A DNA stretch of 36,207 nt, from the IMG/VR virus record IMGVR_UViG_2541047897_000007, positions 1 through 36,207 of that record, one strand, 5' to 3'. How positions within the stretch are numbered: the first letter of the stretch is position 1; each line of letters begins with the position of its first letter. Below the pieces are notes generated by a model. It had not been told where the DNA came from and made no database searches. It saw only the letters and a program-made list of their open reading frames with translations. Shown piece by piece: positions 6,279 through 12,681 of this stretch. Both the position numbers and the translations under genes were made by a program. Source of the stretch: a virus. Lineage: Duplodnaviria > Heunggongvirae > Uroviricota > Caudoviricetes.

Positions 6279-9101
6279 ATGACGGCAGAGTACATCAGGG
6301 ACTGGCAACAACCGCGCCACGCAGTGGGGCGTGAAGGAACGGGGATCCCCGCTCCTGAATCCGCGCTTTCCTCCTGGCTGGATGCCTACCGGGTAGAGAA
6401 CGAGCGCCGCCAGGAAATGGCTGATGCGGCGTTCTCCGCCACGCCGCTGGGCAACCTGATTAATAAAAGCCTGGACGCACAGGAAAAACAGGACAAAACC
6501 ATCACACTGGCAGGAGACGCCAGAAAACAGGCACGCGGCGCAGTGGATGAAGCCATGACCTCGCTGCGCCTGCTGCCGTCCTATCTGCGCGATCCGCTTA
6601 TTCGCCACCTCTCCTTCCTGCGCAAAAAACAGGAAGCCGATCGCCGGAAAGGCAAAAAGAGCTGGCAGGCGGAACGCTATGCACGCGGAACCCTGCGCAA
6701 AATATTCGAACGTCTGGACCGCACCGATCACCGCTGGCTGACACCGGGTTATCGCTCCCTTGCCGGACGCGAACGCCTGGACGATTTGCTTTACCTGCCG
6801 CAGCTCAACAAACACCAGATACAGACGCTGGCCACCATGACGGCGGCGATGTTCAGCAGCACCTTCGAAAAACTCTGCGATGGCTTTGGCGCGACTGATG
6901 GCGAACTGACCATGGATGTAACGCTGAAGGCGTATCAGATGCTGGCCCGCATGGCGTTACACCTGCACGCCATGCCTCCACATTATGACGCACTGACAAC
7001 AGACAAAGACCGGAGGAACGAACCGGACACAGAGCTGCTGCCGGGCGCAATCCTTCGCCTGACCTGTGCGGAATGGTGGAAACGCAAACTGTGGCTGTTA
7101 CGTTGCGAGTGGAGAGAAGAACAACTCCGCGCCGCCTGTCTGGTTTCCAGAAAAACATCGCCCTATCTGAGCCAGGACGCGTTAAGCGAGTTTCGCGCAC
7201 AGCGCGAGAAAACACGCGATTTCCTGAAAAGTTTCATGCTGGAAAACGAAGACGGGTTCACGATTGATCTCGAGACAGTGTATTACGCGGGAGTAAGTAA
7301 CCCGGTTCACCGTAAGGCAGAAATGATGGCCACCATGAAGGGACTGGAACTTCTGGCCGAAGCCCGTGGCGACAGAGCGGTGTTTCTGACTGTCACCTGC
7401 CCGTCAAAATACCACGCAACAACGGAGAACGGTCATCCGAACCCCAAATGGAACGGGGCCACCATGCGCGACTCCAGCGATTACCTGGTTAACACGTTTT
7501 TTGCGGCGGTCCGCAAAAAACTGAACCGCGACGGCCTGCGCTGGTATGGCATCCGCACGGTGGAGCCTCACCATGACGGCACCGTGCACTGGCATATGAT
7601 GGTCTTTGCTCATCCGGAAGAAATCGACAGCATCGTGGCCATCACCCGCGATATTGCCATTCAGGAAGACCGCCACGAGCTGGGCAATGATATTACTCCG
7701 CGCTTTAAAGTGGAGTATGTCGACGGCTCAAAAGGCACACCAACCAGCTATATCGCGACCTACATCGGGAAAAACCTGGACAGCCGCGCCGTGGATGGCA
7801 TCGACCCGAAAACGGGCAAACCACGCGTTGACCACGAAACCGGAAAATCAATGGCCGAGAGCGTGGAGCGCGCCATCGGTTGGGCACGCCTTCACCGGGT
7901 CCGCCAGTTCCAGTTCTTTGGCATCCCCTCCCGTCAGGTGTGGCGTGAACTCCGCCGCCTTGCCAGCCAGATGGCACGCAACCCGGAAGGCCCGCAACGG
8001 CTGAAGGATGACGCAATGGATGCGGTACTCGCTGCCGCTGATGCCGGATGTTTTGCCACCTACATAGAGAAACAGGGCGGCGTACTTGTTCCACGCAAAG
8101 ACTACCTGATTCGCACCGCCTACGACCTCGCCGATGAGCTGAACGATTACGGCGAACAGAGTGTACAGATTTACGGGATCTGGTCACCACTCATCGGGGA
8201 ATCCTCCCGTGTGTGCACGCACCCGGATAACTGGAAGCTGGTAAGACGTAAACCGGAACAGGAAGGCAGCGCCCACGAAAATGGTTTTGACCTTCAGGGC
8301 GGCCCTGCCGCCCCTTGGACTCGTGGCAATAACTGTCCCCGTGTACAGGAAACGGACAACAACGGGACAGAACAGCCGGAAGAACGGCCAGCACCGTGGC
8401 CGCAGCTCCCTGACGGCGTTGAAGTGAACGAATGGATGCGCTCACTGAAACGGCACGAACGCCGGGCGCTGATGCGTTCGCTTCGTGACAAACAGGCAAA
8501 AAACAGCAGTGATGAAATGCAGAGCTGGACACAGAGCCGCAAACAGCAGCGGCCTTTGCCTGATAACCACGAATTACTCGCTAAAGAATGGCGGGAGTCT
8601 GCTGAATCTCTCGGCCTGCATATCGGTGAACAACAGATGCAGCACCTGTTACGGGGCGGCAGTCTGTACGTTGACGGCAGCATCATTGCACCGCAGGGAT
8701 TTGAAATTGTACGCAAACCGGATACCCGCCCGGACAGCCGAATCACGCAGCTCTGGCAGCGCCTGAGCCGTAATCACGGCGTAAGCAGCACGGAGATCCG
8801 CCATAACCCGGTCGCCAGCTATCTGGCGCAACTGGGGGCATCAGACCCTGAAGCCGCCGCACGCCTGGCATCCACACTTCAGCAGGACCAGAACACCATG
8901 AAAACACCCGTTACCGTGCTTTCTGACATGCTGCGCGCCATCCGCGACACAGAGCACGCACAGAGAATCAGTGAAACCACTGAACGCGCCCGCCGCAAAG
9001 CAGACCTGCTGCGGGGTGGCCTGACCATTGGAAACAAAAAACAGACAGAAACGGGATTCACAAATCCCGTAAATGAGCAAAAAACGCGCCGCGATATATG
9101 A
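6279..9101 (+). CDS. A: replication initiation endonuclease (P2 gpA-like, rolling-circle HUH nuclease)
   Basis: 940-aa ORF; HUH-type motif VHWHMMVFAH and tyrosine pair in SYIATYIGK; position after the early operon as in P2. Confidence 0.9.
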   Translation: MTAEYIRDWQQPRHAVGREGTGIPAPESALSSWLDAYRVENERRQEMADAAFSATPLGNLINKSLDAQEKQDKTITLAGDARKQARGAVDEAMTSLRLLPSYLRDPLIRHLSFLRKKQEADRRKGKKSWQAERYARGTLRKIFERLDRTDHRWLTPGYRSLAGRERLDDLLYLPQLNKHQIQTLATMTAAMFSSTFEKLCDGFGATDGELTMDVTLKAYQMLARMALHLHAMPPHYDALTTDKDRRNEPDTELLPGAILRLTCAEWWKRKLWLLRCEWREEQLRAACLVSRKTSPYLSQDALSEFRAQREKTRDFLKSFMLENEDGFTIDLETVYYAGVSNPVHRKAEMMATMKGLELLAEARGDRAVFLTVTCPSKYHATTENGHPNPKWNGATMRDSSDYLVNTFFAAVRKKLNRDGLRWYGIRTVEPHHDGTVHWHMMVFAHPEEIDSIVAITRDIAIQEDRHELGNDITPRFKVEYVDGSKGTPTSYIATYIGKNLDSRAVDGIDPKTGKPRVDHETGKSMAESVERAIGWARLHRVRQFQFFGIPSRQVWRELRRLASQMARNPEGPQRLKDDAMDAVLAAADAGCFATYIEKQGGVLVPRKDYLIRTAYDLADELNDYGEQSVQIYGIWSPLIGESSRVCTHPDNWKLVRRKPEQEGSAHENGFDLQGGPAAPWTRGNNCPRVQETDNNGTEQPEERPAPWPQLPDGVEVNEWMRSLKRHERRALMRSLRDKQAKNSSDEMQSWTQSRKQQRPLPDNHELLAKEWRESAESLGLHIGEQQMQHLLRGGSLYVDGSIIAPQGFEIVRKPDTRPDSRITQLWQRLSRNHGVSSTEIRHNPVASYLAQLGASDPEAAARLASTLQQDQNTMKTPVTVLSDMLRAIRDTEHAQRISETTERARRKADLLRGGLTIGNKKQTETGFTNPVNEQKTRRDI

Positions 9102-9146
9102 AGCGCGCATAAAACAGGCAAAAACGGGATTTCAGAATCCCGTAAA
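9049..9146. promoter_or_regulatory. two 25-bp dyad repeats, candidate centromere/operator for the downstream parMR-like operon
   Basis: aaacgggattcacaaatcccgtaaa (9049..9073) and aaacgggatttcagaatcccgtaaa (9122..9146), each an 8-bp-arm inverted repeat, spaced 73 bp; the first lies inside the 3' end of gene A. Confidence 0.4.
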
Positions 9147-9177
9147 CGATTAATTAATCAACATAAGGAAAAGCGAC

Positions 9178-10137
9178 ATGAAAATTTGTATCGATGACGG
9201 CTCCACCAACATCAAGCTGGCATGGACTGAGAACGGCGAACGCCGCAACGCCATCAGCCCAAACAGCTTCAAGTCGGAATGGTCTGCGCCGTTCGGTGGC
9301 ACGCAGCCCGCGAACTACATGCTTGATGGCGTGCGCTATGGTTTTGATCCGGTCAGCGATCGCTTTGTCCAGACGACCGACACGCAATACCAGTACAGCG
9401 ATGTGAATGTCATTGCCATTCATCACGCGCTGGTCAAATCAGGCATCACACCACAGGAAGTGGATGTGGTTGTCACCCTGCCACTGAGCGAATATTTCGA
9501 CACAAACGCACAGCCGGTCATGGCCAACATCAACCGCAAAAAAGCAAACGTCATGCGCCCGGTGGCGTACCAGAACGGAAAAGCATTCACTATCCGTAAC
9601 GTACGGGTTATGCCTGAATCCATTCCGGCTGGTTTTAAAGCACTGGCTGACATGAGTCCGTTTGAATCCCTGCTGATTGTGGATTTAGGCGGAACCACGC
9701 TGGATGTGGCAAAGGTTCAGGGACAACTGGCAGGTATCAGCCAGGTGTTTTGCGATCCACACGTAGGCGTTTCCCTGATGGCCGATGCCGTACTGTCGGT
9801 GATGGCCACTAACGGTATGCGTACCAGTCACCACATCGCCAATACCATTATCGAACATCGCCATGATGAAGCTTGGCTGCGCCAGCACATCCACAATGAC
9901 GCGCATTACGACAGCCTGATAGCGGTTATTCGTGAAAAGGAAGAAACACTGAAACAACGCGTGATCCGCGCGCTGGCGGGTTTTTCGGGTTACGGGCGGG
10001 TGATGGTTGTCGGTGGCGGGGCGGAGATTGTGGCACCCGCTATCCGCGAAGCCTGCGGAGTTAATGCGACTTTCATCGCGGACGGGGTGCCACAGTTTGC
10101 TCTGGTTAATGGGCTGTACGCAATGGACAAGGAGTAA
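9178..10137 (+). CDS. parM: ParM/StbA-like actin-type segregation ATPase
   Basis: 319-aa ORF; actin-fold motifs IDDGSTNIKL, IVDLGGTTLD and VVGGGAE; close match along its length to plasmid R1 ParM as recalled from memory. Confidence 0.85.
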   Translation: MKICIDDGSTNIKLAWTENGERRNAISPNSFKSEWSAPFGGTQPANYMLDGVRYGFDPVSDRFVQTTDTQYQYSDVNVIAIHHALVKSGITPQEVDVVVTLPLSEYFDTNAQPVMANINRKKANVMRPVAYQNGKAFTIRNVRVMPESIPAGFKALADMSPFESLLIVDLGGTTLDVAKVQGQLAGISQVFCDPHVGVSLMADAVLSVMATNGMRTSHHIANTIIEHRHDEAWLRQHIHNDAHYDSLIAVIREKEETLKQRVIRALAGFSGYGRVMVVGGGAEIVAPAIREACGVNATFIADGVPQFALVNGLYAMDKE

Positions 10138-10453: not shown

Positions 10454-10516
10454 CACAACATCAGGGCGCATCCGCCCTGATGACTTTAACCCGGGAACAT
10501 AAACAAGGGGGACACA

Positions 10517-10849
10517 ATGCAACACATTGACAGAGAAAAAGCGCAGCGACTGATTGAGCGGATGGAAGCGCTGGCGCAAGAAGAAAATGTCAACATCCAA
10601 AAAATAGCTGAATGTGGCCAGATAGTTCTTCGTCGTGAAAAAGACCTCAAACAACTGATGTCTGGCAAAACCAGCAAAACATGGGATTCAGGCGAGGAAA
10701 TGATTTATTGCAGCTTCTGCAATAAATCCCAGTACGAAGTCACAAAGGTGATTGCTGGACCGTCTGTTTACATCTGCAATGAGTGCGTGGATTTGTGCAA
10801 TGAAATTATCAGGAGAGAAGTGGCAGACAAAAAGGGAAAAAACACATGA
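10517..10849 (+). CDS. stand-alone ClpX-type C4 zinc-finger (ZBD) domain protein
   Basis: 110-aa ORF with strong RBS; C-terminal [38 protein letters not shown] is near-identical in pattern to the E. coli ClpX N-terminal zinc-binding domain, including the spacing of all four Cys; no AAA+ module follows. Confidence 0.75.
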
Positions 10850-11160
10850 ACAGAAAACAAAAACAAGAGTTGAAATACTTTTTACGTAAAGAAATTGCCA
10901 GGCTTGAAGATGCAGAATCACGATCATCAGAAATTCCGTTCGGAATGGATATCAACGACGCCCGTATGCTCCAGGCATACCGTATAGCTCAGGCTGCACT
11001 ACAGGCAAAACCGTCAGATGGACTGGTTAGAGCAGTACGTTTCTATGAACTGGTAAAGCGTGAGAATCCGCCAACCGAAACCGGAGCATGGAAAGACGCT
11101 GTTGACTGGGTGCTCAGAGAAGCTTGCCAGACTGTAAACATTGGTATCAAAGGAGAGTGA
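10846..11160 (+). CDS. hypothetical protein
   Basis: 104-aa ORF, start overlaps the upstream stop. Confidence 0.55.
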
Positions 11161-11162
11161 GA

Positions 11163-11654
11163 GTGCAGATTTCACCGGTTACTCTTCGTGTTGCGAAGGC
11201 ATTTATATCCAGACATCACCGACACAATAAACCCCCGGTGGGGCATAAATTCAGCATTGGTCTGAGAAATGATGCCGGAGAATTGATAGGTGTGGCGACA
11301 GCCGGTCGACCTGTTGCACGACATTTGGACGATGGATTAACGCTTGAAGTAAATCGCACATGTACCACAGGAGAACGCAACGCTAACAGCGCGCTTTATG
11401 GTGCTGTCTGGCGGGCAGCAAAAGCTATGGGTTATCAACGTTGTATTACGTACACCCGGGCAGATGAATCAGGAGCATCTCTTCGCGCAGCTGGTTTTGT
11501 TCGTGTGAAAGAGCTTCCTCCAAGAAAAAGCTGGGCGGAATCAAGCGTCGCCCTGCGGAGTAAACGCGATCCGGTCGGAAACGGTGGTGTTCCTCGTGTG
11601 CTCTGGGAAATCAGGAGAATGAGTACCACTGGCATTCGCATCAAAGGAGAGTGA
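11163..11654 (+). CDS. hypothetical protein (weak GNAT-like resemblance)
   Basis: GTG start at 11163 with AGGAG 6 nt upstream preferred over the overlapping ATG at 11124; 163 aa. Confidence 0.45.
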   Translation: MQISPVTLRVAKAFISRHHRHNKPPVGHKFSIGLRNDAGELIGVATAGRPVARHLDDGLTLEVNRTCTTGERNANSALYGAVWRAAKAMGYQRCITYTRADESGASLRAAGFVRVKELPPRKSWAESSVALRSKRDPVGNGGVPRVLWEIRRMSTTGIRIKGE

Positions 11655-11655
11655 T

Positions 11656-11919
11656 ATGGCAACTTTAACAAAAAAAGAACGGGCATGGTTGAATGAATTA
11701 CAGGACGTTCTTGATCGCTGCCCATCACCGAAAAAAATTGGTTTTTACACCATTGGCGATAAAAGCATTTACCTGTATGACCTGCGCCGCATGGATGAAA
11801 TCATGGAGGCTCTTGATAATCGTTCGTCAATGGATTGGTGTGTTGCTGTTCATGATATGAATGCAGGGTTTGATGAAAAGATTTTGTTCCCCTCATCAGT
11901 TGAAAGCACAGCAGGATAA
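11656..11919 (+). CDS. hypothetical protein
   Basis: 87-aa ORF starting 2 nt after the upstream stop, preceded by the same aaaggagagtga junction seen at 11149..11160. Confidence 0.55.
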   Translation: MATLTKKERAWLNELQDVLDRCPSPKKIGFYTIGDKSIYLYDLRRMDEIMEALDNRSSMDWCVAVHDMNAGFDEKILFPSSVESTAG

Positions 11920-11929
11920 GGACTAACAC

Positions 11930-12190
11930 ATGACAACTTTCACCGACAAAGAACTGATTAAAGAAATCAAAGAGCGCATAGGCAGCCTGGACGTTCGAGA
12001 CAATATTGAGCGCCGTGCTTATGAAATTGCACTGGCATCACTGGAAGCAGAGCCAGTAGCATGGATGCATGTAAATAACGGCATCGGAATACCAGCAATA
12101 ACAAGGAGTAAAGAGGTTGCAGAGAGTTGGTTATCAAAAGGCTGGTATGTCCAACCCTTGCATCTAGCCCAGCCTGCATCAAAGCTATAG
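11930..12190 (+). CDS. hypothetical protein
   Basis: 86-aa ORF with RBS aggact; last gene of the island. Confidence 0.55.
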   Translation: MTTFTDKELIKEIKERIGSLDVRDNIERRAYEIALASLEAEPVAWMHVNNGIGIPAITRSKEVAESWLSKGWYVQPLHLAQPASKL

Positions 12191-12200
12191 AAATGAGCCA

Positions 12201-12229
12201 AAACGCCCTCTTCCAGGGCGTTTATTTTA
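12201..12229 (+). terminator. rho-independent terminator ending the early/accessory operon
   Basis: aaacgccct-cttcc-agggcgttt hairpin followed by a T-rich tract. Confidence 0.55.
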
Positions 12230-12681
12230 ATGCACAATAGTGCACAAATTTGCACAATTTTTTTGAACGACTTTTTGCCCTTCCGGCCCCCGTGGCGGCT
12301 GGATCCGTCAAGGATCCGTGCGTGCACAAAAAAACGCGTTTTTTCTGCGCGCAGGTGACGGGGGAACAGCCCGCGTTTCAGGGGGTAAATAGCGTTCCCT
12401 TAACGATGTCGCAGCGACACGACAGAATGGCCGTATTTCTCACGCTGAGCGTGAAAAATACGTGAGGGATTCTGATTTGATGGGGTGAAAGGTAAGGCCG
12501 TCAAAATCGCACTGAGGCGGCGAGAACATGCAGTCAACGCGGTGGGATTGCGTAAGAGTCTGACCGTCGATGGTGGCGATAAACTGGAAGGCGTCGTGAA
12601 ATTATCTGACTGATACAGGAGCTGGAGAGTCGGGGCATAAATTTTTTATGCCCCGGCGAAGCAGCAGACAAGCGAAGCGCG

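Follow-up and report, generated by a model that had tools for sequence, protein, structure and literature searches.

Temperate phages of Escherichia coli encode a small protein in which a zinc-binding domain (ZBD) of the ClpX type follows a helical hairpin and stands without an ATPase motor. The gene is analyzed here in a 36,207-nucleotide stretch of phage DNA (the window), which comes from an E. coli phage that is temperate and P88-like (Xuanwuvirus, P2-like). We tentatively interpret the protein as a free mimic of the ClpX N-domain that would act as a selective competitor for N-domain clients, a reading in which doubt still slightly outweighs confidence. The gene is already catalogued (PF06689, phrog_6797) and is uncharacterized as far as the literature was searched.

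From position 9000 to position 12500, the window shares 97% identity with phages PhiR44_2 and P88, and a prophage of strain UTI89 has the same gene order with 99.4% identity. The positions of the ZBD gene, its domains, and its neighbors are listed in Table 1. Similarity to P88-like phages that lack the ZBD gene stops exactly at the stop codon of stbB, indicating that a cargo module begins near position 10454, with the perfect hairpin that follows stbB. No run of T follows this hairpin on the plus strand, so that it does not obviously serve as a terminator; it could mark a boundary of recombination or act in RNA stability. The first 86 nucleotides of the module are apparently kept on their own in about 70 E. 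coli genomes, as estimated from a 40-row sample. No promoter-like or terminator-like site was found on the plus strand between stbB and the ZBD gene, and a terminator-like hairpin is positioned at 12201-12223, after the last gene of the array, which points to co-transcription of the ZBD gene with the genes that precede it. The overlapping stop and start codons at the end of the ZBD gene suggest, as judged from the sequence, its translational coupling to whichever gene comes next.

Two direct repeats of 42 nucleotides (9035-9076 and 9108-9149), 81% identical and 73 nucleotides apart, straddle the stop codon of gpA just upstream of parM. Each repeat holds the palindrome ACGGGATT-N4-AATCCCGT. The repeats could form a parC-like centromere and an operator on which the StbB/ParR-type protein acts, and may also provide a promoter expressing parM, stbB, and the ZBD gene in lysogens. 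Two genes downstream of the ZBD gene, positions 11163-11654 encode a protein of the XF1762 family (NF045478, E=1e-60), which has a weak match to Pfam Mom and a match to phrog_1384, 'Mom-like DNA modification protein', and is followed by two small open reading frames. As part of the array, it is a candidate for a role in DNA modification or anti-restriction. The region of approximately 11015-12057 is shared, at 94-97% identity, with the Ea22/EaA regions of lambdoid and Stx phages, and the small open reading frames at 10846-11160 and 11930-12190 both match phrog_660, an Ea22-region family of unknown function.

Table 1. Features of the hairpin-ZBD gene, its surroundings in the window, Doc/Phd pairs beside it in other loci (positions in those loci), and conservation of ClpX docking residues in the family
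Feature	Position	Strand	Details
gpA replication endonuclease	6279-9101		PF05840; upstream of ZBD ORF
ParM/StbA ATPase (parM)	9178-10137		upstream of ZBD ORF
Plasmid_stab_B protein (stbB)	ends 10453		directly upstream of ZBD module
Perfect hairpin, CATCAGGGCG-GATG-CGCCCTGATG	10459-10482	.	10-bp stem, 4-nt loop; right after stbB stop codon
Shine-Dalgarno-like AGGGGGA	10506-10512	+	4 nt before ATG of ZBD ORF; read from sequence
Hairpin-linker-ZBD ORF	10517-10849	+	ATG start, 110 aa plus stop; phrog_6797; PGAP 'ClpX C4-type zinc finger protein'
N-terminal helical hairpin, residues 6-48	10532-10660	+	predicted helices 6-23 and 27-48; AlphaFold2 pLDDT 85-96
Linker, residues 49-61	10661-10699	+	predicted disordered, pLDDT ~43; length and sequence vary across family
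ClpX-type C4 ZBD, residues 62-101	10700-10819	+	
Zinc-ligand codon C65	10709-10711	+	
Zinc-ligand codon C68	10718-10720	+	
Zinc-ligand codon C87	10775-10777	+	
Zinc-ligand codon C90	10784-10786	+	
Charged C-terminal tail, residues 102-110	10820-10846	+	varies by allele: ADKKGKNT vs TDHEEKTHE
ATGA stop/start overlap	10846-10849	+	ZBD ORF with 104-aa ORF 10846-11160
Doc/Phd beside hairpin-ZBD gene, L010	4501-5754		E. coli C3 prophage
Doc/Phd beside hairpin-ZBD gene, L037, L039, L040, L042			
Doc/Phd beside hairpin-ZBD gene, L082	2825-4372		
ClpX F16			family: invariant, 21/21
ClpX I46			family: I, V or F
ClpX L13			family: always aliphatic (L/I/V)
ClpX I29			family: kept in 20/21
ClpX A30			family: kept in 20/21
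ClpX K27			family: K/R in 17/21
ClpX L12			family: usually T; M in window
ClpX H23			family: Y, H or T; Y in window

The Pfam model zf-C4_ClpX (PF06689) matches residues 64-99 of the phage protein over model positions 2-38 of 39, with an E-value of 2.7e-18 and a score of 66 bits, where the gathering threshold is 27. An earlier note on this DNA, made from the sequence alone, described the domain as matching the N-terminal domain of host ClpX almost residue for residue. The description is fair for the core (62-100), in which 30 of the 39 residues are identical to those of K-12 ClpX (77%). The pairwise alignment with E. coli ClpX that the note suggested pairs residues 52-104 with ClpX residues 2-54 and contains 34 identities in 53 positions (64%, BLASTP E=6e-23). 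All four cysteines are present, as had been claimed, and retain the CxxC-18-CxxC spacing of ClpX C15/C18/C37/C40; they are invariant in all 21 family sequences. The significant sequence matches in the PDB are to ClpX ZBDs or ClpX chains only (1ovx, E=1.8e-20), and the next, non-ClpX, match has an E-value of 0.79. The similarity is specific to ClpX but not to the ClpX of the host, since E. coli ClpX is matched no less closely by the ZBDs of bona fide ClpX proteins from distant bacteria.

The remainder of ClpX is missing from the phage protein, in agreement with the earlier description of a ZBD without an AAA+ ATPase. The open reading frame ends with a stop at codon 111 and has no Pfam AAA match, and thus no AAA+ module, no Walker A/B ATPase module, and no ClpP-docking IGF loop. 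The equivalog models of full ClpX (TIGR00382 / NF003745) failed: TIGR00382 scored 50 bits against a cutoff of 370.75, over model positions 6-52 only. Searches of the open reading frame with Pfam and NCBIfam identified nothing besides the ZBD, and no match to Ogr/Delta (PF04606) or to a DNA-binding family.

The structure of the protein was predicted by AlphaFold2 from an alignment of 17 sequences, with a mean pLDDT of 76.7. The model places two helices and a disordered linker (residues 49-60) in front of the ZBD, which bears out the claim that a helical N-terminus is fused to the domain. In Foldseek comparisons, the predicted ZBD superimposes onto the ClpX ZBD structures 2ds5, 2ds6, 2ds7, and 2ds8 with root-mean-square deviations of 0.6-0.8 Å over 38-41 residues, and the target-normalized TM-scores of 0.86-0.91 refer to the predicted model only. 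The modeled ZBD thus has the treble-clef fold of 1OVX and 2DS5. Foldseek searches of the PDB and BFVD gave no informative structural match for the hairpin, as the ZBD part alone was matched.

The nucleotide sequence of the gene differs considerably from that of host clpX. Only 11 of the 30 ClpX-identical core residues share the codon of K-12 clpX, and third codon positions are identical in 15 of 39 cases. The Nei-Gojobori comparison of the core with K-12 clpX gives pS=1.0 and pN=0.18. When the gene was used as a megablast query against 5,426 complete E. coli genomes, clpX itself was never matched. Recent capture from host clpX is ruled out by the saturation of synonymous sites and the lack of megablast-level similarity. 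The saturation of synonymous sites, together with the retention of the protein sequence, indicates long purifying selection on the ClpX-like surface. This protein-level constraint favors a ClpX-specific surface over a generic zinc ribbon, the alternative that the earlier note had set against its own reading. Between P88-type and D6-type homologues the dN/dS of the ZBD is approximately 0.33, and in the hairpin, synonymous sites are saturated with a pN of 0.38. Truncated or frameshifted copies of the gene exist (P0009, P0014, P0017, L083, and L085) and are compatible with the gene being a decaying, functionless fragment of captured clpX. This explanation can hardly be upheld, as subfamilies sharing 36-50% identity, on many phage backbones, all retain an intact two-domain open reading frame, dN is well below dS, the zinc ligands are invariant, and the ribosome-binding site is strong.

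The residues by which ClpX binds its clients are known in part. F16 and I46 of ClpX form a hydrophobic side pocket for trigger factor, which overlaps with the lambda O site and with the region bound by SspB and RssB (PMC7804408). The antitoxin MqsA is recognized via the ClpX N-domain, with chemical-shift changes at D3, K4, L13, K27, I29, and A30, and its recognition is weakened by the ClpX substitutions L12S, L13A/D, and H23A (PMC8808172). H23 of ClpX is also implicated in binding of the SspB tail. The positions equivalent to ClpX L13, K27, I29, A30, F17, and I47 are I63, K77, I79, A80, F67, and I97 in the phage protein. ClpX L12 is replaced by M62 in the window, and by threonine in most relatives, and H23 is replaced by Y73. 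Conservation of the pocket was mapped in 21 distinct family sequences (Table 1).

Several positions differ from ClpX systematically, namely L11T/M, G18N, H22Y, R25T, D37N, and D45E in the numbering that omits the initiator methionine. In D6-type relatives, ClpX L42 is changed to D, V, or A, and P31/S32 to DA, DN, or ED. A sub-clade of P88-type alleles (L023-L026, L029, L031, and L032, which are IMG/VR prophage contigs) carries the substitution Y85C, within PSVCICNEC, which adds a fifth cysteine beside the third zinc ligand. The position corresponds to ClpX Y34 in the Met-less numbering and is occupied by F, W, or N in other relatives. The changes at L12, H23, Y85, and P31/S32/L42 indicate that the surface is not a perfect copy of that of ClpX, and the range of clients may be narrower or different.

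The protein is a full-length member of phrog_6797, a family of unknown function (E=4.6e-57; residues 1-106 align with positions 5-107 of the 107-position profile). The gene was found by megablast in 112 of the 5,426 complete E. coli genomes (~2%), including the uropathogenic strain UTI89. A profile of the hairpin alone, used in an exhaustive search of 1.84 billion representative proteins, gave 16 matches. They are hairpin-ZBD proteins, as seen in the full-length ones inspected, or truncations, except for a weak repetitive match to a protein of 1,176 residues (P0130). Neither this search nor a word-based search with the N-terminal 59 residues identified another architecture or a remote family. 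As nearly all of the hairpin matches are hairpin-ZBD proteins or truncations, the architecture is fixed and the family narrow.

Homologues that are 36-68% identical were found in further P2-like prophages whose gpA and portal genes differ; there, the gene is the last one on the plus strand after gpA and before the Ogr/Delta or portal gene, sometimes as the sole cargo. In at least six different P2-like backbones the gene closes the gpA operon, and a separate Ogr_Delta gene adjoins it in related prophages. The P1-like phage D6 and the ~108-kb records PhiR41_1 and CMS-2020a have homologues with 48-50% identity, which are positioned in accessory arrays of the Ea22/EaA type. The record MT838126 ('Bacteriophage sp.') was considered as a distant full-length relative and rejected, as it is a bacterial tig-clpP-clpX fragment. 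Members of the family are often misnamed 'carboxylate--amine ligase' (P88 YP_009113062.1, D6 YP_009914770.1, and many E. coli NR entries), a name for which Pfam, NCBIfam, and fold searches give no support in the form of a ligase domain.

Other short phage proteins with ClpX-type ZBDs are represented by phrog_12435, phrog_5259, and the 65-residue 'Clp protease' of Pseudomonas phage PP9W2, and tblastn matches to the ZBD are present in Caulobacter phage Cr30 (81491-81649) and in gp258 of Bacillus phage G, both known from the match alone. All of them resemble the family studied here in having a phage-encoded ZBD-like domain without an ATPase. They differ in lacking the hairpin domain (for Cr30 and phage G, as far as the tblastn match extends) and in their far greater divergence (31-44% identity), and they too are uncharacterized. 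Judging from these sequences, free ZBDs may be a recurrent phage invention.

The genes surrounding the ZBD gene were clustered for 70 loci. The downstream gene belongs to cluster c6 in 27 loci, is Ea22-like (c0) in 25, belongs to c24 in six, and is Doc in four; the upstream genes vary too. An obligate partner gene is rejected on these grounds, as the downstream genes fall into several unrelated clusters. In D6-type loci, Ea22-like genes are positioned on both sides of the ZBD gene. Modular coiled-coil accessory genes of the Ea22 type seem to be its usual company. The occurrence on unrelated backbones with no fixed partner gene makes a host component, or else a generic one, the most likely target rather than a phage-specific one.

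This distribution bears on the proposal that the zinc ribbon was co-opted outside the network of ClpX clients, for example as a module by which a phage or Ea22-type protein dimerizes or binds a partner, or as a small regulator of the early/partition operon. Such a role is conceivable but rather unlikely. It would accord with the stand-alone PF06689 proteins that carry other appended regions in non-phage contexts (P0038, P0040, P0061, and P0109), with the loss of ClpX L12 and H23, and with the usual translational coupling of the gene to a downstream accessory gene, often an Ea22-like one. However, the flanking genes on both sides are not conserved, and the same module is found on unrelated phage backbones. 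The conserved positions extend beyond the fold core to solvent-exposed docking residues, and the searches of Ogr/Delta and DNA-binding families were negative.

A Doc/Phd toxin-antitoxin pair adjoins the hairpin-ZBD gene in 18 of the 112 carrier genomes, in convergent orientation. A Doc/Phd pair is also found, independently and in divergent orientation, alongside a relative that shares 36% identity, on another P2-like backbone; between the two arrangements, the Doc proteins are 58% and the Phd proteins 28% identical. Obligate linkage to Phd/Doc was considered and rejected, because the window and many of the backbones lack the pair. In D6, genes for HumD (UmuD'-like) and Phd/Doc are positioned 6-8 kb downstream of the homologue on the same strand (L093 39452-41108; D6 85452-87108), and in PhiR41_1 (108 kb) a UmuD gene is 3.5 kb downstream of its homologue. 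UmuD' of E. coli and Phd of P1 are ClpXP clients.

The decoy may alternatively serve in conflicts between mobile elements, for exclusion or anti-addiction, by blocking the ClpX-dependent remodeling of Mu transpososomes, which would exclude Mu-like phages, or by stabilizing ClpXP-labile antitoxins (Phd, MqsA-type) so as to blunt toxin-antitoxin-based abortive infection or post-segregational killing. The slot between gpA and gpQ, in which the gene resides, is the anti-phage hotspot of Rousset et al., whose supplement lists a 'StbA + Plasmid_stab_B + zf-C4_ClpX' cassette (PMC9122126). The two independent Doc/Phd associations point in the same direction, as do the recognition of MqsA through the N-domain and the citation of P1 Phd as a ClpXP substrate in PMC4963847. 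Nevertheless, we regard this role as improbable. No defense model of PADLOC-DB 2.0 matched the ZBD open reading frame or the four downstream ones at E≤0.01, and most carriers, like the window, lack Doc/Phd, including backbones in which the ZBD gene is the sole cargo. Furthermore, the gene points in the same direction as the early lytic operon instead of being a separate cassette expressed in lysogens.

The reading of the protein as a free N-domain mimic is built on the behavior of ClpX itself. Deletion of the ZBD from ClpX abolishes the RssB-mediated breakdown of sigma-S but spares ssrA substrates, and the purified free ZBD, supplied in trans, inhibits RssB-mediated sigma-S turnover in vitro (PMC7226468). 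The phage ZBD would fold around zinc and dimerize like the isolated ClpX ZBD, and the hairpin could provide a second interface for self-association, with oligomerization or avidity as its conjectured role. The protein would then compete with the N-domains of the ClpX hexamer for the docking adaptors RssB and SspB, and also for N-domain-dependent substrates such as initiators of the lambda O type, MuA, UmuD', and unfolded antitoxins, for example MqsA. The predicted outcome is a selective inhibition of ClpXP and ClpX. The timing that we infer is set by co-transcription with the gpA-parM-stbB early and partition genes. A decoy must reach concentrations comparable to those of its clients, and the expression level, like the timing, is one that we infer. 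The simple decoy model leaves the conserved hairpin unexplained.

The hairpin would have a role if the phage protein acted as a poison or retargeting subunit. In ClpX, the N-domains normally form three dimers per hexamer. The phage ZBD would heterodimerize with these N-domains and tether the hairpin to them, thereby blocking the function of the N-domain or recruiting new cargo bound to the hairpin. The target would then be ClpX, and the clients would not be titrated. The near identity to ClpX of the segment comprising the helix and beta-hairpin is consistent with this mechanism, and cargo binding would supply a function for the conserved extra domain. However, ClpX ZBD dimers were reportedly found to be very stable by Wojtyra et al. 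in 2003, which makes an exchange into pre-assembled ClpX doubtful. The D6-type changes at L42 and P31/S32 would also be odd if the exact dimer interface of ClpX were required. We consider such a role as a poison or retargeting subunit unlikely.

Comparison with known systems delimits the proposed decoy. The phage ZBD shares with ClpX the Pfam domain, the zinc ligands and their spacing, 77% of the core residues, the predicted fold to within 0.6-0.8 Å, and most of the pocket residues. In contrast to ClpX, it lacks the AAA+ ring, follows a helical hairpin of 48 residues, and is encoded by a gene whose synonymous sites are saturated. One of the closest functional parallels is the isolated ClpX ZBD supplied in trans, which is likewise motor-less and, by competing, inhibits the degradation of sigma-S that depends on RssB (Micevski et al. 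2020, PMC7226468). However, that ZBD is a laboratory construct of a host protein, whereas the phage version is a natural gene product with an additional domain and a putative activity. [quoted passage not shown] Unlike the phage protein, ClpC2 is described there as chromosomal, of a different Clp family and fold, and with an antibiotic as the known ligand. The anti-adaptors IraD, IraM, and IraP are, in the accessible portions of the corresponding reports, also small proteins that selectively stabilize a ClpXP substrate by interfering with its adaptor (PMC6546054, PMC10844676, PMC4428439). In those same portions, they differ in binding RssB, do not mimic ClpX, and bear no sequence or fold relation to the phage protein.

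Modulation of host proteolysis by phages has precedents beyond ClpX. Phages encode several modulators of host AAA+ proteases: PinA of T4 and Gp4.5 of T7 act against Lon, RexB of lambda against ClpP-dependent degradation, and Gp53 of SPO1 on ClpC. These proteins resemble the proposed decoy in being means by which a phage tunes host proteolysis. None of the four is known to copy the protease's own recognition domain.

The literature searched contains no characterized phage or stand-alone ClpX ZBD protein and no study of such a protein. No functional test of the zf-C4_ClpX cassette was found there either; the cassette appears solely as an entry in the supplement of PMC9122126. It is possible, although more doubtful than the decoy activity as such, that temperate enterobacterial phages (P2-like, the P1-like D6, and the ~108-kb records) carry a dedicated mimic of the ClpX recognition domain that reprograms the specificity of ClpXP by titrating N-domain-dependent adaptors and substrates. 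The effects could include stabilized sigma-S, replication initiators, and antitoxins, as well as blocked remodeling of Mu-type transpososomes, and the hairpin would give multivalency or a second target. Such a mimic would be the first decoy in nature by which phages turn a copy of a protease's recognition domain to their own use.

ClpXP controls sigma-S, UmuD' and with it SOS mutagenesis, the response to envelope stress, proteins of cell division, a number of antitoxins, and phage proteins including lambda O and MuA; for many of these, docking to the ClpX N-domain is required. If the phage protein proves inert towards ClpX clients, the finding shrinks to an uncharacterized small zinc-ribbon protein of phages. 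Decoy activity, if real, would be notable, and it is readily testable. A mobile, free-standing copy of the N-domain would be a selective route by which prophages rewire host proteolysis and stress physiology, and it may also interfere with rivals such as Mu-like phages, toxin-antitoxin-based abortive infection, and plasmid addiction. The protein would furthermore be a ready genetic tool for separating the N-domain-dependent from the pore-dependent functions of ClpXP in vivo. Roughly 2% of the complete E. coli genomes, that of uropathogenic UTI89 among them, contain the gene, so that an influence on RpoS or on the tolerance of stress, if there is one, would matter for pathogen biology.
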